Shown: one piece after another, positions 20,579 to 35,766 of the stretch
How positions within the stretch are numbered: the first letter of the stretch is position 1
Layout of the letters: each line of letters begins with the position of its first letter
DNA from: an uncultured Candidatus Rokubacteria bacterium
GTDB lineage: Bacteria; Methylomirabilota; Methylomirabilia; Rokubacteriales; CSP1-6
Assembly: GCA_963762145.1 (NCBI GenBank)
Contig: CAVXJS010000021.1
Location: forward strand, 224,001-288,000
Direction of reading: 5' to 3'
DNA: 64,000 nucleotides
Notes under the pieces: model-generated
What the model was told of the DNA's origin: nothing
Database searches by the model: none
What the model saw: the letters and a program-made list of their open reading frames with translations, nothing else
Program-made: the position numbers and the translations under genes

Positions 20579-20584
20579 GGCGGG

Positions 20585-21517: not shown

Positions 21518-22557
21518 GCGCGCTCCCGGACGGCCGACCCGCTCCGCCACTCGGCCCGGATCTTCTGGAACAGGAAGCCGAAATAGCTCCGATTCGTGGG
21601 CACCGGGATCCCCGCGGCCACGAGGAGACGATGCACCTCGGGCAGGTTGTAGTTGGGAATGCTGGGAAACACGTGATGCTCGTAGTGGAGGTACTGGCCG
21701 AAGGGCGCGATGATCCACCGCTCGACCACGTTCAGACGGCTCGTCCGCGTCACCCACGCCTCCTGCGGCGACTCCGGATGATAGCCCGCCTCGAAGCCGT
21801 GCTCCGCGATCGAGCGAACCCGGATCTGGAGTGGATAGAGCGTCATGATGGGCAGGACGTGCAGGAGCAGGTAGGCCCAGGGCCCGCCCGTCATCGTGAA
21901 CAGCGCCAGGAGCGCGAGCTGGGTGATCGCCACCGGGATCATCGTGGCGGCCATGCGGACGAAGTAGGCCGGCGTGAGGCGCCGCCACGGCGAGACGGAA
22001 TAGGTGGCGCGGTCGGACTGGGAGTACTGCAGCAGACGCTTGACCGCCGACACCAGGAAGAGGTCCCCGAGCAGGCCCTTGAGCATCGCGGACGCCGACG
22101 CCTCCGGCTGGCTGAAGATGATGTCGGGATCGCGATCGGTGTTCAGGTACAGGTGATGGTCCATGTGCGCGGTCCGGTGCCCCCCGCGCGTGTAGCCGAG
22201 CAGGTACGCGAAGAGATTCCCGAACCCCTGGTTCAGGCGCGGATCGTGGAACAGGGTGCCGTGGTCGCTCTCGTGCACGAGCTGGGCCGCGCAGTTGAAG
22301 TTGCGGATCGCCCAGAGCGCCAGGAGCGCGGCGGTCCACCAGCGGGGATAGAGCCCGAAGACCACCGGTACCGCCACGAACGACGCCAGCGCCGCGATCA
22401 CGTCCAGCGCGCTGCGCCCATCGCGCATCCGGTGCACGGCTCGGAGCGCCTCGAGACTGATCGCGCCCGACTGCAGCGCTTCCCGGGCGGACCGGGGCGC
22501 GCCCACCGTCATGTCCTCGAGACCCGCTCCGCTCCGGTCGGTCATTCCGGTGGTCAT
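21514..22557 (-). CDS. Membrane fatty-acid desaturase family (His-box diiron) protein
   Basis: Three His boxes HESDH, HMDHH and HYEHH, plus AEH and PSIPNYNLP; TM segments (3' part of ORF 21514..23805). Confidence 0.82.
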   Translation of the reverse strand: MTTGMTDRSGAGLEDMTVGAPRSAREALQSGAISLEALRAVHRMRDGRSALDVIAALASFVAVPVVFGLYPRWWTAALLALWAIRNFNCAAQLVHESDHGTLFHDPRLNQGFGNLFAYLLGYTRGGHRTAHMDHHLYLNTDRDPDIIFSQPEASASAMLKGLLGDLFLVSAVKRLLQYSQSDRATYSVSPWRRLTPAYFVRMAATMIPVAITQLALLALFTMTGGPWAYLLLHVLPIMTLYPLQIRVRSIAEHGFEAGYHPESPQEAWVTRTSRLNVVERWIIAPFGQYLHYEHHVFPSIPNYNLPEVHRLLVAAGIPVPTNRSYFGFLFQKIRAEWRSGSAVRERA

Positions 22558-22559
22558 CC

Positions 22560-23084
22560 CTAGAGCGCCTTCATGCGGAGAATCTTGCGGGCCGCCAGCC
22601 CGACGCTGCCCCCGATCCAGCCCTTGGGGGTGAGCACGAAGCGGTCGCCCTGGGCCTTCAGGAAGCGATTGGCCAGCATGATCTCCAGACGATCGGCCAT
22701 GAGCACCTCGACCCCGCACACCGCTTGCATCTGGGCGAGCGTGAGGCGCTGATGAGGCGCGCGGGCCAGCTCGATCAGGAGCCGGACGGTGATCGAGCGG
22801 TCGGCGTGGGAATAGAAGAGGCCGGCGGTGAGGAAGAGCAAGACCTGGAGCACGAGGCCGTTCACGAGCCCGAGCCGCCAGTCCGCGCCGACGAACGCGG
22901 GAGGGAGGAAGCCCAGATCGGCCGGGGTCATGACGTAGAGCACGAGGTAGAGCGGCACCGTGGGCGCGAACGCCGCCAGCATGGAGGCGAACGCCTTCCG
23001 GGGTGCCACGAGATGGAACACCGCCGCCTGCACGAGCACCCAGGTCGTGATGAGCAGGCCGCAGAGCACGAGACCCTTCAGCAC
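22560..23084 (-). CDS. Hypothetical membrane protein with C-terminal winged-helix-like region
   Basis: About 3 TM helices then RSITVRLLIEL...RLEIML...FVLTPKG; co-oriented within the operon. Confidence 0.7.
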   Translation of the reverse strand: MLKGLVLCGLLITTWVLVQAAVFHLVAPRKAFASMLAAFAPTVPLYLVLYVMTPADLGFLPPAFVGADWRLGLVNGLVLQVLLFLTAGLFYSHADRSITVRLLIELARAPHQRLTLAQMQAVCGVEVLMADRLEIMLANRFLKAQGDRFVLTPKGWIGGSVGLAARKILRMKAL

Positions 23085-23093
23085 CCGGTCCTC

Positions 23094-23630
23094 CTACGCG
23101 CCCACCTGGGCGTTGATCAGCCGCTTGAGAAAGGACCCCAGCGCCGCGACCCGCTCGCCCGGGGCCAGGATCCGGTACGCGCCCGCCTCCTCCCGCACGT
23201 AGCCGCCCTGCAGGAGCTTGGGGAGCCGCCGCTGGAAGATGAGGTTGACCGGCTGATCGCTCCCCTGGATGGCGAGGGCCGCGGACCGGGTCATGCCCTC
23301 TCGGCCGCGGAGCCGGAGCGCCACCATCACGCTCATGGACGGGCTCAGGCAGGCAAAGTACGAGAAGCACCAGTAGCCGTGGAACATCAGGACGAGGAGC
23401 AGGAAGCCGTTCCCGAAGTCCACCAATGGGACGGTCTCCTGCCAGGCGGTGGGCAGGAAGCCCAGATCGGGCGGCAGGAGCCAGAACCCCGCCACGTAGA
23501 GCGCCTCCGCGGCGGCGAACGCGCCGATGAACAGCCGGAACTCCTTGTTCCCCCGGTAGAAGCGGAGCGCCACCGCGCTCCCGATCACCAGCAGGGCCAG
23601 GGCTGCGCCGGAGAGGACGAGTCCCTTCAT
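23094..23630 (-). CDS. Hypothetical membrane protein, paralog of the adjacent gene
   Basis: Shares MKGLVL, P.DLGFLP.A, D..NG..L..L, and RL..L..G...Y.I...G with 22560..23084. Confidence 0.7.
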   Translation of the reverse strand: MKGLVLSGAALALLVIGSAVALRFYRGNKEFRLFIGAFAAAEALYVAGFWLLPPDLGFLPTAWQETVPLVDFGNGFLLLVLMFHGYWCFSYFACLSPSMSVMVALRLRGREGMTRSAALAIQGSDQPVNLIFQRRLPKLLQGGYVREEAGAYRILAPGERVAALGSFLKRLINAQVGA

Positions 23631-24302
23631 CTACTGCATCCACTTCTGGAAGTCGGTCACGAACTGGCGCACCGCTTCGTCGGTCTTGGGGTGGCTGACC
23701 ATGGCCCGGAAGAACTTCGGGGGCACCGTGACGATGTCGGCGCCCGCCTGGAAGGCCTCGCTGATGTCCGCGATGTGCCGGATGCTGCCCACGATGATCT
23801 CGCACGGGACCGCCCGCTCGCGGAACGTCTCCCGGACCGAGCGCACCACCGAGGCCGCGTCGTAGCCCACGTCCCGAATGCGGCCGTAGAAGAGGCTCAC
23901 GTAGTTGGCCCCCGCCGCGGCCGCCATCACCGCCTGCCCGTAGGACATGCAGCAGGTGCAGTTGACCCGGATGCCCCGGCGCCGCAGCTCGCTGATCACG
24001 GCCAGCTCGTCCCAGCCCACCGGGATCTTCACGTTGAGGTTCGGATAGTGGCCGAACTCCCGCACGAAATCCTCGGCTTGCTCGATCATCTCCTCCGGCC
24101 GGGTCGAGAAGACCTCGACGCTCAGCGGGATATCGTACCCGTAGCGCTGCACGAGCTCGATGATCTTCTTCATGTGCTCGCGGAAGTCCGCCTTCTCTTC
24201 CTTGGCGAGGATCGACGGGTTCGTGGTGATGCCGGCGGGAAAGCCGCGCTCCAGCGCCTCCTCGATCTCTACCAGGTTTGCCGAGTCGACGAAGATCTTC
24301 AT
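23631..24302 (-). CDS. Transaldolase/fructose-6-phosphate aldolase family protein
   Basis: MKIFVDSAN, GITTNPS, VKIP (Schiff-base Lys), VNCT, YVSLFYGR, GSIR, GADIVTVP, F..D. Confidence 0.9.
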   Translation of the reverse strand: MKIFVDSANLVEIEEALERGFPAGITTNPSILAKEEKADFREHMKKIIELVQRYGYDIPLSVEVFSTRPEEMIEQAEDFVREFGHYPNLNVKIPVGWDELAVISELRRRGIRVNCTCCMSYGQAVMAAAAGANYVSLFYGRIRDVGYDAASVVRSVRETFRERAVPCEIIVGSIRHIADISEAFQAGADIVTVPPKFFRAMVSHPKTDEAVRQFVTDFQKWMQ

Positions 24303-24327
24303 GATGTCTCCCTCCGGGCCCGCCCCG

Positions 24328-24981
24328 TCATTCGGTCAGGGTCCAGTAGTAGTCGCCGGTGTAGCCGGCCTCGCGGAACAACCGGCGCCAGCCCTCCGGA
24401 TCCGAGTAGGTGAGCGCGGTGAGCTGCCAGCGCTCGAACTTCTCGTGCTGCGCCTCGTCGAGCCACGAGTCCACCTGGACGTAGCGATGGCGCCGGCCCA
24501 CCCGCTCGATCTCGCCGAGCGCGCGGATGCAGTCCGAGCGCTCGAGGTTGTGCAGGGTGTTGATCGACACCACCAGGTCGAACGTCTTGTCCGCGAACGG
24601 CAGCCGCTCCGCAGAGCCGCGCGCGAGGAACGGTCGGACGTCGTCCATCGCCTGGCCGAGTGCGTAGGCCGAGACGTCGAGCCCCGCGACGCGCACCCCC
24701 GCGATCACGCGGCGCAGGTCGTGGAGGAGGAACCCCTTGGCGCATCCGACGTCGAGGACCCGATCGCCCGGTCGGAGCCCGTAGAAGTCGCGGAGGCGGG
24801 CCGCGATCGGCTCCCAGCGCCCGTCGTAGCGGTAGCCGCCGTAGCCCTGGCCGCGGTCGCCGTCGAAGTACTCGCGGGCGAACCGCTTCGCGACCTCGCG
24901 CTGGGCGGGGACCGCGGCGGCGCGGGCCGCGATGTCCCGCCGGGCGCGCGGATAGCGGTCGAGGAGATCCACCTCAGCCAT
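24328..24981 (-). CDS. Class I SAM-dependent methyltransferase
   Basis: YFDGDR..GYGGY.YDGRW, VLDVGCAKGFL, LPFADKTFDLVVSINTLHNL. Confidence 0.85.
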   Translation of the reverse strand: MAEVDLLDRYPRARRDIAARAAAVPAQREVAKRFAREYFDGDRGQGYGGYRYDGRWEPIAARLRDFYGLRPGDRVLDVGCAKGFLLHDLRRVIAGVRVAGLDVSAYALGQAMDDVRPFLARGSAERLPFADKTFDLVVSINTLHNLERSDCIRALGEIERVGRRHRYVQVDSWLDEAQHEKFERWQLTALTYSDPEGWRRLFREAGYTGDYYWTLTE

Positions 24982-25852
24982 TCGCGATCGCTCCAAAGGA
25001 CGCGAGGGTCGCCCGGAGGCCTTCCCGGATCGGGGTGAAGCGCAGTCCCGGCAGCGCGCGGCCCAGGCGGCCGGTGTCGAACCGGCGGTGCGTGATCGGC
25101 CCCTTCCGCGCCGCGCTCGTCACCGTGAGCTCGTAGGGCACGAGGTCGCGGATCGTCTTCACCACGTCCGCGAACGCCTGGCTCTGCCCGGTCGCCACGT
25201 TGTAGACGCCGTCGGCGCCGCTCCGGAGCAGGTCCGCGACCACGCGCGCCGCGTCGTCCACGTACAGGTGGTCGCGCTCTTCCTCTCCCGCCCCGAAGAT
25301 CCGGACCGTGCGGTCCCGGGCCAGGGAGCGCGCGAAGGCGTTGGGGCCGTAGGACGCGTGCGGATCGCCGGGCCCGTAGACTCCGGTCACCCGGAGCGTC
25401 AGGAGCGGAATCCCGCCCACGCGGGCCGCGCTCTCCATCACCCGCTCCCCGACGTACTTGCCGATCGCGTAGTAGCCCGCGGGCGACACCGGCGTGTCCT
25501 CGGTGACCGGCGCCTCGCCGAAGCCGTACGCCGCGTCCGAGCTCAGGTAGACCAGGCGGCCGAGGCGACGTCCCTCGAGATAGGCGGCCAGGTTCGCGGC
25601 CATCGTGGTGTTGGTGAGGAGCGTGGCGGGGCTCTGGCCTCGGTCCGGGGTCAACGCCGACGCGAACACGAGCGCGGTCTCGGGCCCCAGCGCGTCATCG
25701 AGGACCGCCAGCGCGTCGGCCCGCGTGAGGTCCAGCGTCCGTGACGAGTGTGCGACCACCGCGACGCCGTCCTTCTCGAGCCGCGCGTGGAGCGTCCGGC
25801 CGAGGAAGCCGCTCGCGCCCAGGATCACGACCCGCTCCGCCTTCCCGCTCAT
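24974..25852 (-). CDS. NAD-dependent epimerase/dehydratase (extended SDR)
   Basis: GASGFLG, LSSDAAYG, YAIGK (YxxxK), VYGPGD, RDHLYVDD, YNVATG. Confidence 0.88.
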   Translation of the reverse strand: MSGKAERVVILGASGFLGRTLHARLEKDGVAVVAHSSRTLDLTRADALAVLDDALGPETALVFASALTPDRGQSPATLLTNTTMAANLAAYLEGRRLGRLVYLSSDAAYGFGEAPVTEDTPVSPAGYYAIGKYVGERVMESAARVGGIPLLTLRVTGVYGPGDPHASYGPNAFARSLARDRTVRIFGAGEEERDHLYVDDAARVVADLLRSGADGVYNVATGQSQAFADVVKTIRDLVPYELTVTSAARKGPITHRRFDTGRLGRALPGLRFTPIREGLRATLASFGAIANG

Positions 25853-26448
25853 CGCGTGAGGCTCTCCCACCGCATCGGCGCGGCCTGCAGGCGCGGATGC
25901 GCGACCAGCATGTGCCACACCACCGCCTGGAACGCCTCGGCGTGCGCGGTGACCCGCTCCGGGCTCACGGTGGGGATGACCACGCACGCGTCCGCCACGG
26001 TCGCGGTGAAGCCGCCGTCCCGGCCGACGATGGCGCCGATCCGGGCCCTCACCGTCTTGGCGTGCTCGAGCGCGCGGACCAGGTTGATGCTCACCTTCCG
26101 CACCAGGTCGCCCCCGCCCACCGAGAACACGAGCACGCAGTCGCGCGGACCGAGGCGGCTGACCTTGAGCCAGTTGGCGAACGCGGTGTCCCAGCCGTCG
26201 TCGTTGATGCGGGCGGTGAGCTCCGACACGTTGTCGGTCGGCGCGTAGGCCTCGAAGCCCGAGATCTTCCGGAAGTCGTTCACCGCGTGCGAGGCGTTGC
26301 CGGCGCTGCCGCCAACGCCCAGCACGAAGAGACGGCCCCCGCCGTCGCGGGTGTCCGCGAGCAGGTCCACCAGGCTCGAGACCGCCGCGTGATCGATGCG
26401 GGCCGCCACCTCCGCGGCCTCCGCGAGGAACTGGGCGACGAAGTTCAT
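25849..26448 (-). CDS. gmhA: SIS-domain sugar-phosphate isomerase (GmhA-like)
   Basis: GVGGSAGNASHAVND, LTARIND.G...F, FSVGG, S.NL, GRDGG, AEAFQ. Confidence 0.8.
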   Translation of the reverse strand: MNFVAQFLAEAAEVAARIDHAAVSSLVDLLADTRDGGGRLFVLGVGGSAGNASHAVNDFRKISGFEAYAPTDNVSELTARINDDGWDTAFANWLKVSRLGPRDCVLVFSVGGGDLVRKVSINLVRALEHAKTVRARIGAIVGRDGGFTATVADACVVIPTVSPERVTAHAEAFQAVVWHMLVAHPRLQAAPMRWESLTR

Positions 26449-26981
26449 GGGAGATCCTCTATCCGCGCCAGCACCGCGTCGACCGCGCCGGCCAGATCGG
26501 CCACCCGGGCGTCCGCGACACGGCACTCGCTGTAAGGGCGCTCGATGAGCACCGTGTAGCATCCGACCGCCCGGCCCGCGTCGATGTCCCGCCACCGGTC
26601 GCCCACCACGAACGAGGCGGCCAGGTCGAGACCCCAGGCCCGGGCCGCCGCCTCCAGCATGCCCGGCCGGGGCTTGCGACACGCGCAGCCCTCGCCGTCC
26701 GCGTGCACGCAGACGAGAATGTCGTCGACGCCCACCGTCTCGCGTAGCCGCGCGTGCATGATCTCGAGGGTCTCGGGGCTGAGCGTGCCGCGGGCGACCT
26801 CGGGCTGGTTGGTGAAGACGATCGGCCGCAGCCCGACCGCCCGCAGCCGTCCGACCTGCTCGCGCGCCTCCGGGCAGATGCGGAACTCGGCGAGGGTCAC
26901 CGCCGCGTGGGCTCGGCCGTCCCGGACGAGCGTTTCCACCAGGACGCCGTCGCGATCGAGAAACGCGGCCCGCCCGCTCAC
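26445..26981 (-). CDS. gmhB: HAD sugar-bisphosphate phosphatase (GmhB-like)
   Basis: AAFLDRDGVL, TNQP, CVH....CACRKPRPGM, VGDRWRDIDAG. Confidence 0.88.
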   Translation of the reverse strand: MSGRAAFLDRDGVLVETLVRDGRAHAAVTLAEFRICPEAREQVGRLRAVGLRPIVFTNQPEVARGTLSPETLEIMHARLRETVGVDDILVCVHADGEGCACRKPRPGMLEAAARAWGLDLAASFVVGDRWRDIDAGRAVGCYTVLIERPYSECRVADARVADLAGAVDAVLARIEDLP

Positions 26982-28276
26982 CGGCGCCCCGCCTGACCCA
27001 TGGCCACGTACTCCACCCCGCGCAGCTCCGCGCGACCGGCGTCCATCACCCCCACGCAGTCGATGACCACGGGATGGCGCATCGCCCGGAACCCGACTCC
27101 GGGCGGCGTGGCGAACTCGTCCCAGTCGGTCAGGATCAGCAGGCAATCGGCGCCGACGAGGGCCGCGTCGCGGCTCTCCACAAGGGTCGCGGCCACCTCC
27201 GCGCCCGGCGCCTTCACGAGGGGATCGTAGGCGCGCACCTCCGCGCGGCCGCGCAGGTTCTCGATCACGCGCAGCGCCATCGAGTTCTTGGTGGAGCGCG
27301 TGTTCTTCTTGTACGCGAGACCCCACACCGCGACGACCGCGCTCGCGTTGCCGTCGAGCACGCGCCGCTCGAGCTGGCGGTGGACCCAGCGATAGCGGCG
27401 GGCATTGTGCGCGAGCAGCGTGTCCACGTACTCGACGTCGACGCCGTGCCGCTGCCCGAGCCCGCGCAGGGTCACGAGATCGCGCTCGAGATTCCCGCCC
27501 GCGACGCCCAGGCTGGGGCGGATGTACGCGGCGGGCCCGATGCGCCGGTCGAGCCGAAGGGCCGGTACCATCTCCGACCAGTTGGCCCCCACCGCCTCGC
27601 AGAGATCGGACAGGGTGTTGGCGTACGTCACCGCGCCGAACAGGTAGAGGTTGATCGCGGTCTTGGTCAGCTCCGCGCTCTCGTACCCCATCGGCAGGAT
27701 CGGGCATCCGAACCGGCGCAGCCCCTCGTCGAGCTCGGCGGGGAGCGGCCGGCCGGGATCGGCGGCGCCCACGATGAGCCGCTCCGGCTTGAGGAATCGC
27801 TCGACCGCGTTGCCGAAGATCAGCGTCTCGACCCAGTAGTAGACCGCGATCCCGCTGTCCGGGCGGCGCGACTCGATCCGCCCGGCGAGCGCGCGAGTGG
27901 CACCCGGCGATACCTGACTCATCAGGACCAGGGTGGAGCCGGGCCGCAGGTGGGGAATCGCCGCCTCGATCAGGCGGTGCACGATCTCCGGATCGCTTCC
28001 ATTGTCCGCGTCGGTCGGGATGTCCCGCGAGACGATCACGAGATCGCATTCCGCGAGCGCGGACGGATCGCTCGAGAACTGGATGCGGTCGCGGGTCGCG
28101 GCCAGGAGCTCCGGGAGCCCCGGCTCGTGTACCGGAAGCTCACCGCGCCCGAGCCGGTCCACCGCCTCGCGGTCGAGGTCCACCGCGATGACGCGGGATC
28201 CCAGCGAGGCCCACCCGATGCTCGAGATGATCCCGAGGTGGGACAGCCCGAGGAAGCCGGTGGGTCGCGCGCTCAC
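26978..28276 (-). CDS. UDP-glucose/GDP-mannose dehydrogenase family protein (non-canonical)
   Basis: HEPGL.EL, MSQVSPG, PERLIVG, SAELTKTAIN, CEAVGA, DRRIG, GLAYKKNT, YDP; the GGSC catalytic motif reads GGNL. Confidence 0.85.
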   Translation of the reverse strand: MSARPTGFLGLSHLGIISSIGWASLGSRVIAVDLDREAVDRLGRGELPVHEPGLPELLAATRDRIQFSSDPSALAECDLVIVSRDIPTDADNGSDPEIVHRLIEAAIPHLRPGSTLVLMSQVSPGATRALAGRIESRRPDSGIAVYYWVETLIFGNAVERFLKPERLIVGAADPGRPLPAELDEGLRRFGCPILPMGYESAELTKTAINLYLFGAVTYANTLSDLCEAVGANWSEMVPALRLDRRIGPAAYIRPSLGVAGGNLERDLVTLRGLGQRHGVDVEYVDTLLAHNARRYRWVHRQLERRVLDGNASAVVAVWGLAYKKNTRSTKNSMALRVIENLRGRAEVRAYDPLVKAPGAEVAATLVESRDAALVGADCLLILTDWDEFATPPGVGFRAMRHPVVIDCVGVMDAGRAELRGVEYVAMGQAGRR

Positions 28277-29187
28277 GCGCCGCCCTCCAGGGGGGCCGCG
28301 GCCGCCGCCTGCACGGTGCGGGACAGCCACAGGTCGTTCTCGCCGGAGCTGGCGCCGGTCGCGGCCATCGCCTCGAAGTGGCGGATATCGGCGGCCCACG
28401 TGGGGTCGGGGCCGTGCGCCATCTCGCGGCTCTCGTCCGGCACGCCGCTGGGGCGGCGCCGGCGCAGGATCACCAGCTCACTCCGGCCCCACTTGGTGAG
28501 CCCGTTCATCTCGAGCGCGCCCTCTTCTCCGAGGGCTTCGATGCGCCACCGATTCTTCCACGACAGGAAGCTGCACTCGATGGTCACGGCACGGTCGGCG
28601 GTCGCGAGGAGGCAGTGGTCGAAGCCCTTCAGCTCGTGGCGGCGGCGCTCCCACACCCGGAACTCGGCGCCGAAGCGTCCGAAGACGAACCCGGTGAGGT
28701 CGATGAGGTGCGAGGCCATGTCCTCGAGGATGCCGAGCGGGCTGTCCCGCCACGTGCCCACGATGTTGCCCGCGCTGCCGTTCCCGTAGAACATGCGCAC
28801 GCGGTAGAGCCGGCCGATCGTGCCCGCGTCCAGATGGCGCTTGAGGGCCACGACGTTCGGCTCGAACCGGAAGTTGTAGGACGTGTACCAGACGGCGCCG
28901 GAGGCCCGGGCCAGCCGGCCGAGCTGCTCGCCGGTCGCCGGGTCCAGGATCAGGGGCTTCTCGACGAGCACGTGCTTGCCGCGAGTGAGGAAGTACTCCA
29001 TGAGGCGGACCTTCACGTCGTTGGGCACCGCCAGGATCGCCGCGTCGTACCGCTCGTCGGGGCACTGGTCGGGCTGGCGAAAGTCCGCCGCCGGGTTGAA
29101 CGGATCGACGGTGGCTACGCAGCGGTCCCCCAGGACCGCGCGGCGCTTGCCGCCGATATTGCCGAGGCCGACGAGCAGGTATCTCAC
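28273..29187 (-). CDS. Gfo/Idh/MocA family oxidoreductase
   Basis: VGLGNIG, GKHVLVEKPL, YNFRFEP, GILEDMASHLIDL. Confidence 0.9.
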   Translation of the reverse strand: MRYLLVGLGNIGGKRRAVLGDRCVATVDPFNPAADFRQPDQCPDERYDAAILAVPNDVKVRLMEYFLTRGKHVLVEKPLILDPATGEQLGRLARASGAVWYTSYNFRFEPNVVALKRHLDAGTIGRLYRVRMFYGNGSAGNIVGTWRDSPLGILEDMASHLIDLTGFVFGRFGAEFRVWERRRHELKGFDHCLLATADRAVTIECSFLSWKNRWRIEALGEEGALEMNGLTKWGRSELVILRRRRPSGVPDESREMAHGPDPTWAADIRHFEAMAATGASSGENDLWLSRTVQAAAAAPLEGGA

Positions 29188-30719
29188 TCGAAGTGGGCCC
29201 GCTTCTCGATCCGGTGGATCTTCTCGGCCACCTCTTCCGGGGTGATCGGCCGGTTACCCTGATACTCGCAGGCGAGCGCCGCCGACACCGAGCCCAGGAC
29301 CGACGCGATCACGATGTCGCCGGTGGCGGCCAGCGCGAGCGCGGCGTAGCTCAGGAGCGCGTCGCCCGCCCCCACCGGGTCCTTGAGGGTATCCACCAGG
29401 CTGTCGACCGTGAAGAACTCGCGCGGCATGTGGCCCGGCGTCCGGTAGCCGAGAATGCCCCGCTCCCCGAGCTTGAGAATCAGGTGCTTGCACCGGGCGA
29501 GCCGGAAGAGCTGGAGCGCGAGCGGCCGCACCACCGAATCCTGGTCGCCCAGGGCGAAGCGCGCCTCGCGCTCGTTCGGGGTCAGGAGGTCGAAGTCGGT
29601 GAACTCGAGGATGTTGCCCCAGCGGTTCGACACCTGACTGTCCGCCACCTTGATCGCGCCCTCGGGCACCCGCTCCCGCAGCATCCGGATGCTCTTGGAC
29701 CGGAAGATCCCGTGGCGGAAATCGCTGAAGATCACGACGTCCGGGCGGCTGTCCGCCATCGACTCGCTGAGGAAGCGCAGCGCCCGGTCCGAGACCGCCC
29801 GGTTGTCCACCCGATCCACCTGGAGCATCTTGTGGCCGTCCGCGAAGAACCGCTCCTTCTGGGTGGTCGGCCGGGTGCGATCGATGAACCCGTGCACCAC
29901 CACCCCGGCCTCTTCCAGGTCCTTCAGCACGAAATCCTTGGCCGCGTCGTTGCCGAGCACCGTCGAGAAGGAGACCTCGGCCCCCGCCGCCTTCACGTGC
30001 TTGGCCACCACCGCGGCGCCGCCCGAGAAGACCTCGGTCCGCTCGTGCTTGACGCTGAAGGTCGGCGACTTGGCGGTGGCGCCCAGGAGCGAGCAGGACG
30101 AATAGCTGTCCACGATGGTGTCGCCGACCACGTGCACCCGGATCCCCCGCATCCGGCCGAGGGTCTCGCGGAGACGGTCGAAGCCGAAACCCTCCGACTC
30201 CATCAGGGCCAGCAGCTTCTCGACCCCGAGGTTCGGCGGCGCCGCCTCGATGAGCCGGGACGAGGAGTAGACCACGTCGCCCGGCGTGAACACGATCTCG
30301 CCGCCGTAGCTCTCCAGGGTGTCGATCTCCTCCTGGGTGCGCGGCGGCACCCCCTCGGAGAAGTACTCGTAGCCCTTGGCGAAGTAGTCGGGCTGGAGGT
30401 ACTTGATGTGCGCGATCGGGGTCGCGTTGGGGTCGATGATCACGTAGTCGACCATCTCGAGCGCGGCCAGGTTGGCCGCCCGCAGCTCCTGCGGCACGTA
30501 CGGACGGAAGGCCGCCTTGGTCGCGTGCTCGTCGGCGGTCAGGCTCGCGACGAGGAGGTCTGCCTTCTCCTTGGCGTACATCAGGTGGCGCAGGTGGCCG
30601 GGATGCACGATGTCGAACATCCCGTGGCACATGATCACGCTCTTGGCGCGCGGCCGCGGGCCGATGGCGGCGGCCAGCTCCTCGAGCGTCTTCACCTTCT
30701 GCCGGTAGTCGGCTTTCAT
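29184..30719 (-). CDS. Bifunctional sugar nucleotidyltransferase (N) / PfkB-type kinase (C), HldE-like with reversed domain order
   Basis: HGMFDIVHPGH (HxGH), PDYFAKGYEY, SSS; then VVGDTIVD, GGAA, SDF.HG, TPNEREAR, KLGERG, DPVGAGD. Confidence 0.85.
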   Translation of the reverse strand: MKADYRQKVKTLEELAAAIGPRPRAKSVIMCHGMFDIVHPGHLRHLMYAKEKADLLVASLTADEHATKAAFRPYVPQELRAANLAALEMVDYVIIDPNATPIAHIKYLQPDYFAKGYEYFSEGVPPRTQEEIDTLESYGGEIVFTPGDVVYSSSRLIEAAPPNLGVEKLLALMESEGFGFDRLRETLGRMRGIRVHVVGDTIVDSYSSCSLLGATAKSPTFSVKHERTEVFSGGAAVVAKHVKAAGAEVSFSTVLGNDAAKDFVLKDLEEAGVVVHGFIDRTRPTTQKERFFADGHKMLQVDRVDNRAVSDRALRFLSESMADSRPDVVIFSDFRHGIFRSKSIRMLRERVPEGAIKVADSQVSNRWGNILEFTDFDLLTPNEREARFALGDQDSVVRPLALQLFRLARCKHLILKLGERGILGYRTPGHMPREFFTVDSLVDTLKDPVGAGDALLSYAALALAATGDIVIASVLGSVSAALACEYQGNRPITPEEVAEKIHRIEKRAHFE

Positions 30720-31705
30720 CGCGCGAGGTGCTCGAACCACGTCCGGGTGGCGGCCTCGATCTTCTCGGGCGTCCAGAGGGGGGCCGCCCGCCAGTCCTCG
30801 ATCTGTCCGAGCATCGCGGCGACGCCCTGCGGGAAGGCCACCTCCGGCTTCCAGCCGAGGGCCCGCTGGATACGGCCGACGTCGGCCCACGTGCAGTCCG
30901 GCTCGCCCGGGCGCTTCGGCACGTGCACCACGTCGCCTCCCATCAGCTCGATCAGGCGGTTGATGGTCTGGGGATTGCCGGAGCCGAGGTTGAAGACCTG
31001 GTTGGTCTCGGTGGACTCGGCGGCCATCAGGTAGGCCCGGGCCACATCGGTGACGAACACGAAGTCCCGCCGCTGGGAGCCGTCGCCGACCACCGTGAAC
31101 GGCTTGCCGTGGAGCTTCTGGGCCAGGAAGACCCCGAACACCGCGCCGTAGGCGCCGGTGGTGCGGACGCGGGGTCCGTAGACGTTGAACATGCGGATCG
31201 AGACCACGGGCAGCCGGTACACCTGGGCCCAGTGCAGCGCCGCGCTCTCCCCCAGGTACTTGCTGAGCGCGTAGGGGTACTCGGGTCGGATGGGCGCGCC
31301 TTCCGTGGTCGGGAGCTCGGCGGCCATCCCGTAGCAGGAGGACGACGCGGCGTAGACGAACTTCCGGACCCCCGCGTGCCGGGAGGCCTCCAGGACCGCG
31401 AGCGTGCCGTCCACGTTGGCCCGCATGTACTCGAGGGGCCGCTCGATCGACGGCACGATGTCGCCGATGCCGCCGAAGTGGAAGACGTAGTCGACGTCCT
31501 GGAACAGCCGCGAGTCCGCCGCCACCGTGCACATGTCGATCTCGTGGAAGGCGACGCGCGGCTCGCGCCGGTGCTGCGCCAGGTTCTCGGCGCGGCCGGT
31601 CACGAGGTTGTCGATCACCACGACCGAGTAGCCGCGGTCGACGAGCAGATCGACCATGTGGCTGCCGATGAACCCGGCCCCTCCGGTGACGACGGCGCGC
31701 GGCAT
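30716..31705 (-). CDS. NAD-dependent epimerase (UDP-glucose 4-epimerase-like)
   Basis: TGGAGFIGSH, AASSSCYG, YALSK, FNVYGPR, GDGSQRRDFVFV. Confidence 0.9.
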   Translation of the reverse strand: MPRAVVTGGAGFIGSHMVDLLVDRGYSVVVIDNLVTGRAENLAQHRREPRVAFHEIDMCTVAADSRLFQDVDYVFHFGGIGDIVPSIERPLEYMRANVDGTLAVLEASRHAGVRKFVYAASSSCYGMAAELPTTEGAPIRPEYPYALSKYLGESAALHWAQVYRLPVVSIRMFNVYGPRVRTTGAYGAVFGVFLAQKLHGKPFTVVGDGSQRRDFVFVTDVARAYLMAAESTETNQVFNLGSGNPQTINRLIELMGGDVVHVPKRPGEPDCTWADVGRIQRALGWKPEVAFPQGVAAMLGQIEDWRAAPLWTPEKIEAATRTWFEHLAR

Positions 31706-31707
31706 GC

Positions 31708-32718
31708 TCAGGCCAGCCCCGAGGCCTGGATCGTCTTGACGTTGTAGTAGCGGATGTCGTTCAGCGGATCCGGGATGCGCCCGGTCCGGAACGCGGCACA
31801 CAGATCCACCACCGCGTCCTCGATGGTGCGCTGAGGCGCCCAGCCGATCTCCCGCTTGATCTTCTCCGACGACACGTGGTACGAGCGCGTGTCGTTGCTC
31901 GGCACCGTCTCCAGCGTGATGGGGCCGAGCTGCGGCATCTCCCGGCTCACGATCCCCCGCACCAGCTCGCCCAGCTGGGCCACCGTGTGGTTCTGATAGG
32001 CCGCGTTGAAGGTCTTGCCCGCGATCAGGTCCGCCGGCATGTCGAGCAGCTCGACGTAGAGATCGCTGATGTCCTCGATGTGGATGTTGGGGCGCTTCTG
32101 GGCCCCCCCGAAGATCGTGATGCGCCGCTGATTCACCGCGAGGCTCGTGAGGATGTTGACGGTCAGGTCGAGCCGCTGCCGCGGCGAGTAACCGCACACG
32201 GTGGCGGGGCGGATGATCACGGTGGTGAAGTCCGGGGCCTGGTAGCCGAGCAGGATCGGCTCGCACATGCCCTTGTACTTGTTGTAGTCGGTGAGGGGCA
32301 CGAGGGGATGGTCCTCGGTGACGTCCGGAGCGTCGCTGATCCCGTACACGCTCGACGTCGAGGCGTAGATGAACCGGCGCGCTCCCGCCCGGCGGGAGAT
32401 GCTGACGAGCGGCTCGAAGCAGTCGTAGTTGATCGAGCGGCTCAGCCCCGGATTCAGCTCGAAGCTCGGATCGTTCGAGATGCACGCGAGATGGATGACC
32501 GCGTCCACCCCCGCGGCGGCCTTGCCCAGCGCCTTCTGGTCCCGGATATCCGCCTTCACCAGCTCGAGCGACGGGTCGCGGGGCAGCACGTCGGTGCCGA
32601 ACAGGAAGAGATCGATGACCCGGACCCGGTAGCCCTTGGCGAGCAGCTTCGGGACCAGCACCGCCCCCACGTATCCACCGCCGCCGGTCACCAGCACCGT
32701 CGGACGCGTCGTCGCCAT
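31708..32718 (-). CDS. NAD-dependent epimerase/dehydratase (SDR)
   Basis: TGGGGYVG, HLACISNDP, ASTSSVYG, YNKYK, RPATVCGYSPRQRLDL. Confidence 0.9.
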   Translation of the reverse strand: MATTRPTVLVTGGGGYVGAVLVPKLLAKGYRVRVIDLFLFGTDVLPRDPSLELVKADIRDQKALGKAAAGVDAVIHLACISNDPSFELNPGLSRSINYDCFEPLVSISRRAGARRFIYASTSSVYGISDAPDVTEDHPLVPLTDYNKYKGMCEPILLGYQAPDFTTVIIRPATVCGYSPRQRLDLTVNILTSLAVNQRRITIFGGAQKRPNIHIEDISDLYVELLDMPADLIAGKTFNAAYQNHTVAQLGELVRGIVSREMPQLGPITLETVPSNDTRSYHVSSEKIKREIGWAPQRTIEDAVVDLCAAFRTGRIPDPLNDIRYYNVKTIQASGLA

Positions 32719-32719
32719 C

Positions 32720-33445
32720 TCAGGTCCTCCGCGCCACCGGCTCGCGCCGGACGTGGATGGTCCACCACGTCTGCCCGATCGCCCGCAGCGCCTTCAGGAT
32801 GTTCGTGATCGATACGGCCTTCGATCGGCCGTGGGTGCGGTCCACGTGGGTCAGCCCGACCTCGACATAGCTGTACCCGGCGTGGAGCGCGTGGATGAGC
32901 ATCTGGGTCAGGAAGTAGAAGCCCCCCGCGCTCTTGGGGAGCGATCGCGCCAGCGCGACCGGATAGATGCAGGGCCCCTGGTAGTAGTGCATGTGCAGGC
33001 CGAAGAGCCGGTTGACGAGCGCGGTCGAGGCCCACGTCAGGAAGCGGCGATGGAGCTGGCGCGCCCCCGGATTCTGGTGGTACGGCGCCACGATGTCGGC
33101 CCGGCCGACCGCCGCGAAGATGTCGTGCACCGAGTCGCGCGCGATCTCGCCGTCGGCGGCGAGAAAGCTGAAGTGGTCCAGCTTCGCCTCGTCGAGAGCT
33201 CGCTCGTAGGCGGCCGCGATCCCCATGTTCCGCGGCTGGTGGACGGCGCGGATCCGCGGGTTCTCGCGGCCGAGGCGCTCGGCCAGCTCCCCGGTCCGGT
33301 CGGTGCTGCCGTCGTTGATGATCAGGATCTCGTACTCGCTGGTCACCCGCTCGGCGGCCCAGACGATGTCGGCCACCGACCGCTCGAGATTCCCCTCCTC
33401 GTTGTAGGCGGGGAGAAACACGCTGATCCGGCGCGCGATCGCCAT
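32720..33445 (-). CDS. GT2 glycosyltransferase, polyprenol-phosphate (DPM1/Ppm1-like) type
   Basis: LPAYNEE, INDGSTD.T, NMG.AAA, AADG (degenerate DxD), R.HGRSK; 241 aa, soluble. Confidence 0.8.
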   Translation of the reverse strand: MAIARRISVFLPAYNEEGNLERSVADIVWAAERVTSEYEILIINDGSTDRTGELAERLGRENPRIRAVHQPRNMGIAAAYERALDEAKLDHFSFLAADGEIARDSVHDIFAAVGRADIVAPYHQNPGARQLHRRFLTWASTALVNRLFGLHMHYYQGPCIYPVALARSLPKSAGGFYFLTQMLIHALHAGYSYVEVGLTHVDRTHGRSKAVSITNILKALRAIGQTWWTIHVRREPVARRT

Positions 33446-33446
33446 C

Positions 33447-34481
33447 TCAGTAGGGCCCCGCGAACGTCGCCTGCACGTCCGCGACGCCGGCCTCGAGCGG
33501 GGTGCCCGCCTTCAGCACGTCGAGGCAGGCCTGCGCGATGGTCAGCGGATTGGGATGGAACGCATCTTCCAGCGGCTTCGAGACCGGCGCGGGGCAGTCG
33601 GGCGGCGTGACCCGTCGCACCGGGGCCTTCAGATCGTGCCACCCCTTCTCGGCCGCGATCGCGGCCACCTCGGCGGAGAACCCGCAGAGGGCCCAGCTCG
33701 TGTCCGCGACCACCAGGCGTCCCGTCTTCCGGAGCGAGCGCAGGATGATCTCCTCGTCCAGCGGGCGGACGCTCCGCAGGTCGACGACCTCCGCGCTGAC
33801 GCCCTGCTCGGCCAGGATGTCGGCGGCCCGCGCCGCCTCGTAGGCCATCAGCGAGATCCCGACGATCGTGACGTCCGTGCCCGGCCGGACGATCCGGCCC
33901 TTCCCGAAGGGCACCGCCTCGAGTCCCTCCGGCACCTCGCCGTCGAGGTCGTAGAGGGCGCGGTTCTCGAGCAGCACGACCGGGCCGCTGCCCTGCAGCG
34001 CGCTGACCAGCATCCCCTTGGCGTCGGCGGGCGAAGCGGGAAGGCCCACGTAGAGGCCGGGGAAGTGGGCGAACACCGACTGCAGGCTCTGGGAGTGCGT
34101 CGCCCCCTGCCCCCATCCACGGCCGACGATGCCGCGGAATACCACCGGCACGCCGCCCCGGTTGCCGAACATGTACCGCCACTTGGCGGCCAGGTTGAGG
34201 AGCTGATCCATGCACAGGAACATGAAATCGTTCCGCGGATGCACGACCAGCGGCCGCTTTCCGACCGCGGCGGCCCCGATGGCGATGCCGGTCATCGCGT
34301 TCTCGCCGTTCGGGATGTCGAAGACGCGCGCGGGTCCGAAGCGCCGATGCGCCTCCGCGGTCGTGCCGAAGATGCCCTTGAAATCATCGACGCCGATCCC
34401 GGCGACGAAGATGCTCGGGTCCGCTTCCATGCACTGCACGGTCGCTTCGCTGATGGCCTGCCCGTAGGTCAGTCGTCTCAT
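33447..34481 (-). CDS. TPP-dependent 2-oxoacid dehydrogenase E1 beta-like subunit
   Basis: RVFDIPNGEN..GIAIGAA, DQL.N.AAK, GATHSQ, PASPADAKG, VVDLRSVRPLD. Confidence 0.9.
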   Translation of the reverse strand: MRRLTYGQAISEATVQCMEADPSIFVAGIGVDDFKGIFGTTAEAHRRFGPARVFDIPNGENAMTGIAIGAAAVGKRPLVVHPRNDFMFLCMDQLLNLAAKWRYMFGNRGGVPVVFRGIVGRGWGQGATHSQSLQSVFAHFPGLYVGLPASPADAKGMLVSALQGSGPVVLLENRALYDLDGEVPEGLEAVPFGKGRIVRPGTDVTIVGISLMAYEAARAADILAEQGVSAEVVDLRSVRPLDEEIILRSLRKTGRLVVADTSWALCGFSAEVAAIAAEKGWHDLKAPVRRVTPPDCPAPVSKPLEDAFHPNPLTIAQACLDVLKAGTPLEAGVADVQATFAGPY

Positions 34482-34487
34482 GGGTCC

Positions 34488-35450
34488 TCAGTACGCGCCG
34501 GTGGTGAGGTCCTCGACCGCCGGGAAGGACGCCGCGCGCGCCGCGACGACCGCCGCGTCCACCTCGGCCTGGCTCGCGCGCTCCATCGCGGTGATCGCGG
34601 CGGGCGTGCACGCGCCGTCCGCGACGAGGCGCTCGGACGCGCGCCGGATCGGGCAGCGGGCGACCCACGAATCCACCTCGGCCTTGGTGCGGTATCCCTT
34701 GTCGTGGTCCCACAGCGGTCCGACGTGCTCGCGCCACCGGTAGGTCGTGCACTCGAGGAAGAACGGGCCGTCTCCGCGCCGCAGGTGCGCCACCGCTTCT
34801 CGGGCCGCCTCGTGGACCGCGAAGACGTCGTTGCCGTCCACCAGGCGCGCCGGCATGCCGTAGGAGGCGGCCCGCGCGTGGATCGGCACCGTCGCGGGCT
34901 GGCGGACCTCGAGCCGGGTGTGGGTCGAGAACCCGTTGTTCTCGCACACGAAGAGCACGGGCGCGCGCCGCATCACCGCGAAGTTCAGCGTCTCGTGGAA
35001 GATGCCCTCCTCCACGGTGCCGTCACCGAAGAAGCTCGCCGCGATCCGATCCCGGCCGTCCATCGTGAAGGCGAGCGCGGTTCCCACCGCGACCGCCATG
35101 GTCTGGCCGAGAATCGCGGAGGACGCGATGATGCCCGCGTCGGGATCGTTGAGGTGGACGGAGCCGCCCCGGCCCCGCGCGCAGCCCGTCTCGCGCCCAT
35201 ACAGCTCGGCCACCATTCCGGCGAGGTCGCCCCCCTTGGCCAGGTAGTGGGCGTGGCAGCGGTGACCGCTATAAATGATGTCGTCGCGTCGGAGGGCGCC
35301 GCACACACCGACCGCCACCGCCTCCTGGCCGATGGAGAAGTGCGTCGGCGTCCGCATCTCCTGCGACGGGTAGAGATCCGCGAGCGTCTCCTCGACGCGG
35401 CGGATGCGGAGCATGCCGCGCAGCAGGTCCACCCCGGAAGCGGTCGTCAT
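34488..35450 (-). CDS. TPP-dependent 2-oxoacid dehydrogenase E1 alpha-like subunit
   Basis: [31 protein letters not shown]...[18 protein letters not shown] (alternative GTG at 35459). Confidence 0.9.
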
Positions 35451-35680
35451 GGTCCCCACCTATCTCCAATGTCCAGAGCTGCTCATGGTCCGAGCTACGA
35501 GGAGCGTCTCGGCAACGACGCTCTTGGTCACCAGCCGGCCGCCTTCTGGCGGTCCGGCAGCGACTCCGACGCGGAGGTCTATGTCTATATTGTCCTTTTT
35601 TATTAAATGTTTATGTGACACAACGGCTGCTGGTCCCGCTGCGGCTGATCCTCGACGGGCGTCGTTAGGCACGAACAATT

Positions 35681-35697: not shown

Positions 35698-35749
35698 GGG
35701 GTCCTCGTCGTCGCCCTCCAGGGGCCCGCTGTTCGACGCCATGGGGCCT

Positions 35750-35758: not shown

Positions 35759-35766
35759 GGGCCGCC

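Follow-up and report, generated by a model that had tools for sequence, protein, structure and literature searches.

Two described routes to sugars longer than a hexose, that of the lincosamide octose and that of the activated heptoses, come closest to the subject of this study, an 18-gene operon in a 64,000-nucleotide stretch of an uncultured Candidatus Rokubacteria genome (contig CAVXJS010000021.1, positions 224,001 to 288,000; the whole stretch is called the window here, and positions are counted from its first letter). In the lincomycin pathway, LmbP is a GHMP kinase and LmbO a GDP-type nucleotidyltransferase, LmbL belongs to the UDP-glucose dehydrogenase (UGDH) family and LmbZ to the Gfo/Idh/MocA (Gfo) family, and the conversion of GDP-octose by LmbL and CcbZ is said to be a 6,8-dehydration. 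To our knowledge, chemistry of the LmbR, LmbL and LmbZ type is known only from lincosamide antibiotics. In Campylobacter jejuni the capsular GDP-heptose pathway follows the GDP-alpha type, its kinase being of the GHMP family and its guanylyltransferase a separate enzyme. In the accessible text of the published accounts, LmbR forms octulose-8-phosphate from fructose-6-phosphate or sedoheptulose-7-phosphate and ribose-5-phosphate (PMC5854111), LmbO is a guanylyltransferase (PMC4351081), and a dehydrogenase (L) and an NAD(P)-dependent oxidoreductase (Z) act on GDP-octose (PMC12945683, PMC4351081), its conversion being reported for LmbL together with the LmbZ homolog CcbZ (PMC12945683). The same kind of source describes a four-step relay for heptose activation (PMC11573728), the oxidation of GDP-heptose at C4 by C. 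jejuni Cj1427 (PMC10680097), and the transfer of an acetyl branch from pyruvate to nucleoside diphosphate (NDP)-4-keto sugars by thiamine diphosphate (ThDP)-dependent enzymes, the E1-like AviB1/AviB2 and the flavoprotein YerE (PMC4753412, PMC9306805).

At the level of enzyme families, the operon resembles the lincomycin and celesticetin pathway, as far as the available text describes it, in its transaldolase, SIS-domain isomerase, HAD phosphatase, GalE-like short-chain dehydrogenase/reductase (SDR) and pair of UGDH-family and Gfo-family proteins, and the two would share a logic that runs from a ketose phosphate to an aldose phosphate, through phosphorylation at C1 and removal of the other phosphate, to an NDP-sugar tailored on its side chain. 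Unlike that pathway, the operon has a fused kinase/nucleotidyltransferase of the HldC-HldA type, lacks an aminotransferase and adds ThDP-dependent E1 alpha and beta subunits, methyltransferases and a glycosyltransferase of family GT2; the amino-acid and condensation genes of the lincosamide cluster were not seen in the window. We read the operon as one version of a conserved, horizontally spread cassette that would make a nucleotide-activated, tailored C7 or C8 sugar, probably carrying a two-carbon unit added by a ThDP enzyme and methyl groups, which in this organism would serve glycosylation outside the cytoplasm through a lipid carrier. We give this reading, drawn from homology and gene context, a probability of about 0.55. 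The product would most likely be destined for the cell surface and differ from the ordinary heptose of lipopolysaccharide (LPS).

The operon and its genes

Since the window has a G+C content of 70%, genes were called from the G+C content at third codon positions and not from the raw list of open reading frames (ORFs). The operon comprises 18 minus-strand genes from 35450 to 19898, with a largest gap of no more than 25 nt and with overlaps of 4-8 nt at 8 of its junctions, and is translationally coupled. The initial annotation had been confined to 23631-32718. Both limits are true gene ends (the transaldolase gene has its stop codon at 23631, and an SDR gene starts with its ATG at 32718), and by the ORF list and third-position G+C this part holds ten minus-strand genes, with 4-8 nt overlaps at 7 of the 9 junctions and every gap at most 25 nt, but it is only the middle of the operon. 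Every enzyme that had been named there was recovered with Pfam and NCBIfam models; missing from the list were an S-adenosylmethionine (SAM) methyltransferase (24328-24981), the E1 alpha/beta pair, the other methyltransferases and the GT2 enzyme. The missing ThDP pair, methyltransferases and GT2 change the likely chemistry, to which they bring a two-carbon addition. A scan for promoters and terminators over 18000-36500 was uninformative (0 promoter-like and 3 terminator-like sequences, with means of 0.8 and 3.9 after shuffling). The genes, from the start of the operon to the convergent gene beyond its end, are:

34488..35450, minus strand: g18, ThDP-dependent E1 alpha subunit (Pfam E1_dh, 218 bits)
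33447..34481, minus strand: g17, ThDP-dependent E1 beta subunit (Pfam Transket_pyr and Transketolase_C)
32720..33445, minus strand: g16, soluble GT2 enzyme of 241 residues, like polyprenyl-phosphate glycosyltransferases (Pfam Glycos_transf_2)
31708..32718, minus strand: g15, extended SDR, candidate NDP-sugar C4 dehydrogenase (Pfam Epimerase)
30716..31705, minus strand: g14, extended SDR, GalE-like epimerase (Pfam Epimerase, 216 bits)
29184..30719, minus strand: g13, fused nucleotidyltransferase and sugar-phosphate kinase (Pfam CTP_transf_like, residues 31-156; PfkB, residues 197-491)
28273..29187, minus strand: g12, short Gfo/Idh/MocA oxidoreductase of 304 residues, partner of g11 (Pfam)
26978..28276, minus strand: g11, protein of the UDP-glucose/GDP-mannose dehydrogenase family (three UDPG_MGDP_dh domains, Pfam)
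26445..26981, minus strand: g10, HAD-IIIA phosphatase, GmhB-like (NCBIfam histidinol-phosphatase/HAD-IIIA domain, 115 bits, cut-off 84)
25849..26448, minus strand: g9, SIS-domain sugar-phosphate isomerase, distant relative of GmhA (Pfam SIS_2, 27.5 bits)
24974..25852, minus strand: g8, SDR of 292 residues, RmlD/Fcl-like, candidate ketoreductase (Pfam Epimerase and RmlD_sub_bind)
24328..24981, minus strand: g7, class I SAM methyltransferase (Pfam Methyltransf_25/11/31); start possibly at 24981 (ATG), 24972 or 24996
23631..24302, minus strand: g6, short transaldolase of 223 residues (Pfam TAL_FSA, 156 bits)
23094..23630, minus strand: g5, small membrane protein with three predicted transmembrane (TM) segments and a C-terminal domain (hydropathy)
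22560..23084, minus strand: g4, paralog of g5, about 24% identical (hydropathy and comparison with g5)
21514..22557, minus strand: g3, membrane di-iron protein of the FA_desaturase family, hydroxylase or desaturase (Pfam FA_desaturase, 104 bits)
20585..21517, minus strand: g2, SAM methyltransferase (Pfam Methyltransf_23, 99.5 bits)
19898..20578, minus strand: g1, SAM methyltransferase-like protein, with which the operon ends (Pfam Methyltransf_11, 29 bits)
18140..19882, plus strand: g0, polytopic GT-C glycosyltransferase (PMT_2/ArnT-like), convergent with the end of the operon (Pfam PMT_2, 57.5 bits)

Distribution of the cassette

One genome per species (185,579 species) was scanned using an alignment of 20 g11 homologs, which matched 381 stretches, 313 of them encoding a g11 relative. 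The best 80 of these 313 were fetched with flanks of up to 10 kb on each side (many lie on short contigs), and gene presence was scored by tblastn with 19 proteins of the window (best non-overlapping match covering 40% or more of the query). The full-length set consists of the 41 loci that are 19 kb or longer; the 39 shorter ones were dropped, and E1 matches below 35% identity were not counted in it. Relatives of g11 at 86-92% identity occur in metagenome-assembled genomes (MAGs) of Candidatus Methylomirabilota/Rokuibacteriota. The fetched loci belong to Methylomirabilota, Chloroflexota, Bacillota, Verrucomicrobiota, Planctomycetota, Acidobacteriota, Nitrospirota, Thermodesulfobacteriota, Omnitrophota, Bipolaricaulota, Peribacteria and Alphaproteobacteria (including the cultured Azospirillum sp. 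BE72 and Curvivirga aplysinae), and, among archaea, to Methanoperedens and Thermoplasmata. The genes were found as follows:

Gfo oxidoreductase (g12): 76 of 80 loci; 41 of 41 full-length loci
Nucleotidyltransferase/kinase (g13): 73 of 80; 41 of 41, at 53-96% identity
SDR g8: 65 of 80; 36 of 41
SDR g14: 64 of 80; 39 of 41
SDR g15: 62 of 80; 39 of 41
SIS isomerase (g9): 56 of 80; 34 of 41, at 51-94% identity
GmhB-like phosphatase (g10): 55 of 80; 34 of 41
Methyltransferase g7: 47 of 80; 31 of 41
Transaldolase: 46 of 80; 32 of 41
E1 alpha (g18): 40 of 80; 20 of 41 at 35% identity or more
E1 beta (g17): 38 of 80; 19 of 41 at 35% identity or more
GT2 (g16): 31 of 80; 20 of 41
g0 to g5, each: 3 to 8 of 80 (g5 6, g4 7, g3 3)

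Of the 60 loci with every gene of the block g15-g14-g13-g12-g11 (SDR, SDR, nucleotidyltransferase/kinase, Gfo, UGDH-like), 56 keep the block colinear. Because of this block, the 4-8 nt overlaps and the gaps of at most 25 nt, the grouping of the genes is not a matter of chance. In a tree of concatenated g11 and g13 sequences (68 loci and the window; the 12 loci without full-length matches to both were excluded) the phyla are interleaved, e.g., Bacillota and a Polyangiales MAG stand among Methylomirabilota and Chloroflexota, which fits horizontal spread. The initial annotation had remarked that an LmbS-type aminotransferase is absent, and indeed no aminotransferase was found with Pfam and NCBIfam in the operon or anywhere in the window; DegT-family aminotransferases join the cassette in 13 of the 41 full-length loci. 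The neighbours in other lineages include GT4 and GT2 transferases, RmlA/RmlB-like genes and ABC-2 exporters, which is a surface-glycan context, and the cassette sits in such contexts across many phyla, unlike the antibiotic clusters of the lincosamides. A description of the cassette was not found in the literature searched, a search that left subscription journals largely outside.

Enzymes and possible pathway

The route proposed below, in which we infer all substrates, the order of tailoring, the number of carbons, the nucleotide and the acceptor, is built on the observed gene content, gene order, state of the catalytic motifs, conservation and natural fusions. The transaldolase g6 would supply a ketose phosphate, either sedoheptulose-7-phosphate or, as LmbR does, octulose-8-phosphate, and the SIS isomerase g9 would turn it into an aldose phosphate. 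The PfkB domain of g13 would then phosphorylate C1, the GmhB-like phosphatase g10 would strip the distal phosphate, and the HldC-like domain of g13 would form the NDP-sugar (putatively an ADP-sugar, by homology). A keto-sugar might be produced by the Cj1427-like SDR g15 and epimerised by the GalE-like g14, with g12 and the cysteine-less g11 oxidising or dehydrating the exocyclic chain. The stand-alone E1 pair g18/g17 would add a pyruvate-derived two-carbon unit to a carbonyl; reduction by g8 and methylation by g7 may follow. Finally, the GT2 enzyme g16 would load the sugar onto polyprenyl phosphate, from which GT-C enzymes such as g0 would take it.

The transaldolase g6 falls below every NCBIfam cut-off for transaldolases and fructose-6-phosphate aldolases (FSA; best score 169 bits, cut-off 246), and its best PDB match is 3r8r (154 bits). 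In an alignment to the Bacillus and Thermoplasma enzymes it retains Asp6, Glu63, Lys92 and Phe138. The residues Asp, Glu, Lys and Phe are what we take to be the transaldolase pattern, Gln and Tyr presumably marking FSA, and by this rule an aldolase of the FSA type was rejected for g6 (Glu63/Phe138, not Gln/Tyr). Among 47 transaldolases (g6 and 46 cassette-linked homologs) the Asp, Glu and Lys are kept in all and the Phe in 46, the exception being a truncated sequence. The cassette transaldolase of most other phyla is only about 30% identical to g6 and falls into a different NCBIfam equivalog, TIGR02134, with scores above the cut-off of 282 in the Azospirillum locus L042 (343 bits) and in locus L036 (301 bits); its gene usually lies within a sub-block of SIS, phosphatase and transaldolase genes. 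The transaldolase function is therefore integral to the pathway, since it has been kept by non-orthologous replacement. Sedoheptulose-7-phosphate is an ordinary intermediate of the pentose phosphate pathway and requires no dedicated enzyme, so that a dedicated, conserved transaldolase favours a non-standard ketose phosphate as the product, LmbR being the one known precedent; this is an argument and not a demonstration.

In classical UGDH the catalytic cysteine is the nucleophile for the second oxidation. Aligned to the Sphingomonas UGDH (4a7p), g11 has GGN opposite GGSC, with Asn262 at the position of this cysteine, and GLSHLG opposite GTGYVG in the NAD motif, i.e., GxSxxG in place of GxGxxG. 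These departures from the classical UDP-glucose and GDP-mannose 6-dehydrogenases are fixed in the subfamily: none of the 20 homologs compared (60-100% identity) departs from N262, G10, S12 and G15, or from K205, N209 and D266. As the thiol for the second oxidation is absent, the g11 subfamily, labelled "UDPglucose 6-dehydrogenase" in one source, is not a classical uronic-acid-forming one, and a two-step oxidation to the acid should be impossible for g11. In its partner g12 the GxGxxG, EKP and D..H (Asp/His) motifs are intact and conserved, and the AlphaFold2 (AF2) model (pLDDT 96.5) is closest in fold to sugar and inositol dehydrogenases, KijD10 and GenD2. The genes of g12 and g11 overlap by 4 nt in the window and are directly adjacent in 57 of the 80 loci, with one SDR gene between them in 14 more; in 3 of the 4 loci without g12, g11 is at a contig edge. 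In a library search with g12, 102 representatives passed E<=1e-30, almost all of them about 300 residues long. Five of the six longer relatives are fusions of Gfo and UGDH-like proteins (599-719 residues, on different contigs and from different sources), and in one of them the whole second half aligns to g11 at 57% identity with the Asn retained. Given the adjacency, the overlap and the natural fusions, g11 and g12 very probably work as a unit. By name, ten distant relatives of g12 are each a 'predicted dehydrogenase', no Lmb names being among them, and its look-alikes in the Atlas bear generic names.

Two side observations concern g12. The sixth long relative (P0287, 614 residues) is a natural fusion of Gfo and PfkB, the other Rosetta-stone link between cassette members. 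In the Atlas, two clusters that consist of phage proteins alone (Uroviricota; about 281-284 residues, scores 0.96-0.97) rank with the closest look-alikes of g12; phages may carry members related to this short Gfo subfamily.

The initial annotation had likened this enzyme set to the lincomycin pathway. The likeness stands at the family level for the transaldolase, SIS isomerase, phosphatase, SDR epimerase and UGDH/Gfo pair and is not supported for the kinase and nucleotidyltransferase, which are of the HldA/HldC type; within these bounds it is a good functional analogy, strengthened by the conserved transaldolase and by a UGDH homolog that lacks the cysteine and is coupled to a Gfo protein. Carried through in full, it would make the product an NDP-octose: the transaldolase would join a C3 unit to ribose-5-phosphate to give octulose-8-phosphate, g11/g12 would carry out a 6,8-dehydration, and an 8-deoxy-octose would be used for glycosylation. 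We hold this to be possible, at odds clearly short of even. The accessible text offers precedents in the formation of octulose-8-phosphate by LmbR (PMC5854111) and in the action of dehydrogenase L and oxidoreductase Z of the lmb cluster on GDP-octose (PMC12945683, PMC4351081). The window and its relatives offer a dedicated transaldolase beside SIS and phosphatase genes (32 of 41 loci, from two transaldolase subfamilies), a g11 without the cysteine for classical UGDH chemistry, and the DegT aminotransferases of 13 of the 41 loci as counterparts of LmbS. The three SDRs, too, all lack the TDE motif, which we take to be a dehydratase signature. On the other hand, the HldA/HldC-type kinase and nucleotidyltransferase appear to belong to another lineage than LmbP and LmbO, neighbouring UGDH and Gfo genes also occur in unrelated pathways (e.g., WbpA/WbpB), the number of carbons cannot be read from the sequences, and the ThDP enzyme is left unexplained.

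The enzymes of sugar activation point towards heptoses by family but not by score. Among named families, g9, g13 and g10 come closest to the heptose enzymes GmhA, HldE (or HldA plus HldC) and GmhB, respectively, whose four-step relay of activation (PMC11573728) they would repeat. For g9 the best NCBIfam matches are GmhA models, but with 49.9 bits against TIGR00441 (cut-off 209.45) it stays below the equivalog level, as does its ortholog in L042 (49.5 bits). The fused protein g13 reaches 142 bits against HldE (PRK11316; cut-off 521), with 128 (cut-off 345) for domain I and 87 (cut-off 181.5) for domain II; its domain order is the reverse of that of HldE, with the nucleotidyltransferase (residues 31-156) first and the PfkB kinase (197-491) second. 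It carries HxGH and GAGD motifs, and its nearest solved relatives are Burkholderia HldC (5x9q) and HldA (4e84), at 54 bits each. The STTR5 motif, which the available text describes as a mark of heptose nucleotidyltransferases that are promiscuous for the nucleoside triphosphate (PMC11573728), was looked for in g13 and not found. The phosphatase g10 is likewise no GmhB equivalog (104 bits against PRK08942, cut-off 178; 61 against TIGR00213, cut-off 150) and passes generic HAD-IIIA/histidinol-phosphatase domain models only, with a visible DRDG motif, and the HldD model TIGR02197 (cut-off 274.6) gives 61 bits for g8, 127 for g14 and 47 for g15. The Azospirillum orthologs repeat this pattern. Because the scores for GmhA, HldE, GmhB and HldD are far below the equivalog cut-offs, this is not the housekeeping synthesis of ADP-heptose. 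MAGs of Bacillota, Chloroflexota and archaea carry the cassette too, and lineages without LPS synthesis are among its carriers. It is thus well supported by these comparisons that the cassette is not a plain ADP-heptose locus, as had been claimed at the outset; it further differs from the ADP-heptose set in having its own transaldolase and a tailoring cassette of 12 genes.

All three SDRs have the YxxxK motif. The best PDB match of g15 is 6vo6 (135 bits); g14 scores 172 bits against the GalE model (cut-off 262) and 178 bits against PDB 4zrm, and g8 scores 65 bits each against rmlD and Fcl, under both cut-offs, with weak PDB matches. The TDE motif was looked for in g8, g14 and g15 and found in none, and a classical 4,6-dehydratase among them, presumably recognisable by this motif, was rejected.

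A second alternative, to which we give the same less than even chance as to the NDP-octose, is a modified C7 sugar. The transaldolase would boost the supply of sedoheptulose-7-phosphate, and the NDP-heptose would undergo Campylobacter-like oxidation at C4, epimerisation and reduction, followed by addition of a C-acetyl branch of the yersiniose type and methylation. The best family matches of g9, g10 and g13 (GmhA, GmhB and HldE/HldA/HldC) and the nearest solved relative of g15, 6vo6, speak for it. In the available text, many bacteria, archaea and viruses carry enzymes for heptose synthesis whose roles are unknown (PMC11573728), C-branching of 4-keto sugars by ThDP enzymes is already documented (PMC4753412, PMC9306805), and the capsular GDP-heptose modification of C. 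jejuni resembles the proposed route in the SDR-based tailoring of an NDP-activated higher sugar through keto intermediates (PMC10680097). The cupin epimerases of that system are lacking here, while C. jejuni lacks the UGDH-like/Gfo pair, the ThDP enzyme and the transaldolase. Against this alternative, every heptose-model score is far below its curated cut-off, sedoheptulose-7-phosphate would need no dedicated transaldolase, yet the transaldolase is conserved and non-orthologously replaced, and a role of g11/g12 on a heptose is not obvious.

The E1 subunits fall below the NCBIfam cut-offs of the pyruvate dehydrogenase (PDH) E1 models (g18, 294 bits against a cut-off of 394 for alpha; g17, 295 against 321 for beta), and by Pfam the operon holds no E2 or E3 partner for them. 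In other loci the pair is replaced by a split transketolase-like pair or by an acetolactate synthase (ALS)/YerE-like enzyme, and one of the three ThDP enzyme types is present in at least 30 of the 41 full-length loci. Since the function is supplied by non-orthologous proteins, it is needed by the cassette, and the formation of a carbon-carbon bond would be a conserved part of the pathway, either as a branch at a ring ketone or as an extension at a terminal aldehyde. A ThDP enzyme without E2 and E3 that clusters with putative NDP-keto-sugar-forming enzymes is the arrangement of a C-branching system; the E1 pair here, of the AviB1/AviB2 kind, or in other loci the ALS/YerE-like enzyme, stands beside NDP-sugar oxidoreductases and a candidate ketoreductase, in the manner of the systems of avilamycin (AviB1/AviB2), yersiniose (YerE) and erwiniose (ErwE), judging from the available text (PMC4753412, PMC9306805). 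The known branching reactions take hexoses, 6-deoxy or 3,6-dideoxy, that come from 4,6-dehydratases, whereas the backbone here would be of a heptose or octose type and a TDE-type dehydratase is lacking.

If the octose and the two-carbon addition are combined, a C9-C10 sugar could result, with an LmbR-like transaldolase, activation by the reversed HldC-HldA fusion, oxidation or dehydration of the side chain by the cysteine-less UGDH-like/Gfo pair, and two more carbons from the ThDP enzyme; we consider this combination unlikely. More improbable still is a chain extension in which g11 stops at a terminal aldehyde and the ThDP enzyme adds activated acetaldehyde in the style of 1-deoxyxylulose-5-phosphate (DXP) synthase, to give a C9/C10 keto-deoxy terminus that some loci would reduce, transaminate or methylate. 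The loss of the cysteine with retention of Lys205, Asn209 and Asp266 in g11 agrees with a one-step oxidation, ThDP carboligases usually take aldehydes as acceptors, and the split transketolase of L036 scores 146 bits against the DXP synthase model; but this extension is pure inference with no precedent known to us, the GxSxxG motif may impair NAD binding, and g15 already offers a ketone as acceptor. Housekeeping heptose synthesis can be dismissed, since it has the GmhA-, GmhB- and HldE-like family names alone in its favour, against scores two- to fourfold under the equivalog cut-offs, the absence of HldD, the reversed domain order, the tight coupling to ten other conserved genes and the presence of the same cassette in Bacillota, Chloroflexota, Methanoperedens and Thermoplasmata MAGs.

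Several points weigh against our preferred reading, the tailored C7 or C8 sugar with an added two-carbon unit. The altered Rossmann motif of g11 might mean that it is no redox enzyme at all. The E1 pair, about 25-100 bits under the PDH E1 cut-offs, could in principle be a metabolic enzyme travelling with the operon, and 11 of the 41 full-length loci showed no ThDP enzyme at a distance of up to 10 kb, detection being a lower bound since E1 matches below 35% identity were disregarded. The substrate assignments draw on distant homology (g13, 54 bits to HldA/HldC; g9, 50 to GmhA; g16, 42 to DPMS), and 6vo6, the nearest solved relative of g15, is only presumed to be Cj1427. NUDIX hydrolases occur in 13 of the 41 full-length loci of other lineages, a hint that the NDP-sugar is hydrolysed there and not used as a donor. 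The GT2 gene (20 of 41 loci) and g0 to g5 (3 to 8 of 80) stand outside the conserved core, so that the lipid-carrier route holds for the lineage of the window only.

Lineage-specific genes, surroundings and implications

The window and its close relatives L005, L007 and L008 share a set of extra genes, namely those of the GT2 enzyme, the two 3-TM proteins, the di-iron enzyme, two methyltransferases and the PMT_2 GT-C enzyme. The nearest solved relatives of g16 are DPMS (5mlz), ArnC (9hwj/9bhc/8vxh) and GtrB (5ekp), at E-values of 1e-9 to 1e-7, and no hydrophobic or TM segment was found in it. With g0, a protein with about seven merged hydrophobic segments that is found at the same position in L005, L007 and L008, the arrangement may recall ArnC/ArnT, GtrB/GtrA/Gtr and DPM1/PMT, in which GT2 relatives (weak here, E about 1e-9) are accompanied by a GT-C enzyme, here the adjacent PMT_2 protein. 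Unlike the ArnC, GtrB and DPM1 systems, the GT2 enzyme has no C-terminal TM helices, two 3-TM proteins are present, and no family match to a GtrA- or ArnE/F-type flippase was detected. This weak homology suggests that the sugar may be transferred to polyprenyl phosphate and used outside the cytoplasm, g0 being a candidate user of the lipid-linked sugar.

Neither of the membrane proteins g4 and g5 has a family match in Pfam or NCBIfam, and g5 has no PDB fold match at E<=0.001; its AF2 model (pLDDT 83.8) gives weak, winged-helix-like fold matches only. In both proteins three hydrophobic segments at the N-terminus precede a C-terminal domain, about 80 residues long and weakly winged-helix-like. 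Outside the operon versions of Methylomirabilota type, they occur only in a single locus each of Bacillota and Rokuibacteriota. That they anchor the TM-less GT2 enzyme is speculation. The best NCBIfam match of g3 is the guanitoxin arginine hydroxylase GntB (69 bits, cut-off 380), and its substrate may be the lipid carrier or a glycolipid.

Around the operon lie six paralogs of about 600 residues, each with a polytopic membrane domain followed by C-terminal TPR repeats:

2370-4136, plus strand: TPR membrane paralog
4133-6043, plus strand: TPR membrane paralog
14866-16827, plus strand: TPR membrane paralog
37751-39625, minus strand: TPR membrane paralog
39739-41526, plus strand: TPR membrane paralog
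45376-47199, minus strand: TPR membrane paralog

Five of them are mutually 40-51% identical and the sixth is about 30% identical. Their membrane domains have no significant Pfam match; by language model, they look like PMT_2 clusters and a eukaryotic TMTC DUF1736 cluster, and they are possible GT-C glycosyltransferases supplied with a lipid-linked sugar. A DAO gene of the window (16941-18143) was compared with the DAO genes that lie next to the cassette in Verrucomicrobia, and a link between them was rejected (25% identity over about 200 residues). The window also contains two Liv-type ABC operons for branched-chain amino acids (6162-11243 and 47436-52039, both plus strand), each with a binding protein, two permeases and two ATPases. 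From 53461 to 64000 (minus strand) it holds a motility/signalling cluster with a PilB-like T2SSE ATPase that carries an MshEN domain, genes of a Roadblock/LC7 protein and a small Ras-like GTPase (an MglB/MglA-like pair), an unassigned 979-residue protein and two response-regulator proteins; it also includes a CheA-CheW-receiver hybrid kinase, cut off by the end of the window. About 3 kb (41527-44600) are without gene calls before an ORF at 44601-45347 (plus strand) that matches the C-terminal part of Hydantoinase_B only (292-519 of 519), and the ORF at 1078-1722 (plus strand) matches only the later part of biotin carboxylase; both genes probably start upstream of the calls, or contain frameshifts.

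Enzymes of NDP-heptose synthesis occur across bacteria, archaea and viruses, and, in the available text of that work, its authors note that conserved neighbours may give a clue to their roles (PMC11573728). The cassette is such a conserved neighbourhood, with about 12 genes whose order is kept from Methylomirabilota to Verrucomicrobiota, Bacillota and Methanoperedens. It unites features that are not known together elsewhere, a dedicated transaldolase, a reversed HldC-HldA fusion, a UGDH homolog that has lost its nucleophile and is tied or fused to a Gfo protein, and a ThDP carboligase. If the C9-C10 route were true, such sugars would be on the surfaces of hundreds of mostly uncultured species in more than 12 phyla, archaea included. 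A solution of the pathway would add a new sugar to the known building blocks of environmental microbes, a function would follow for a large unannotated subfamily now labelled "UDP-glucose 6-dehydrogenase", and it would show whether chemistry of the LmbR, LmbL and LmbZ type is widespread in primary surface glycans.

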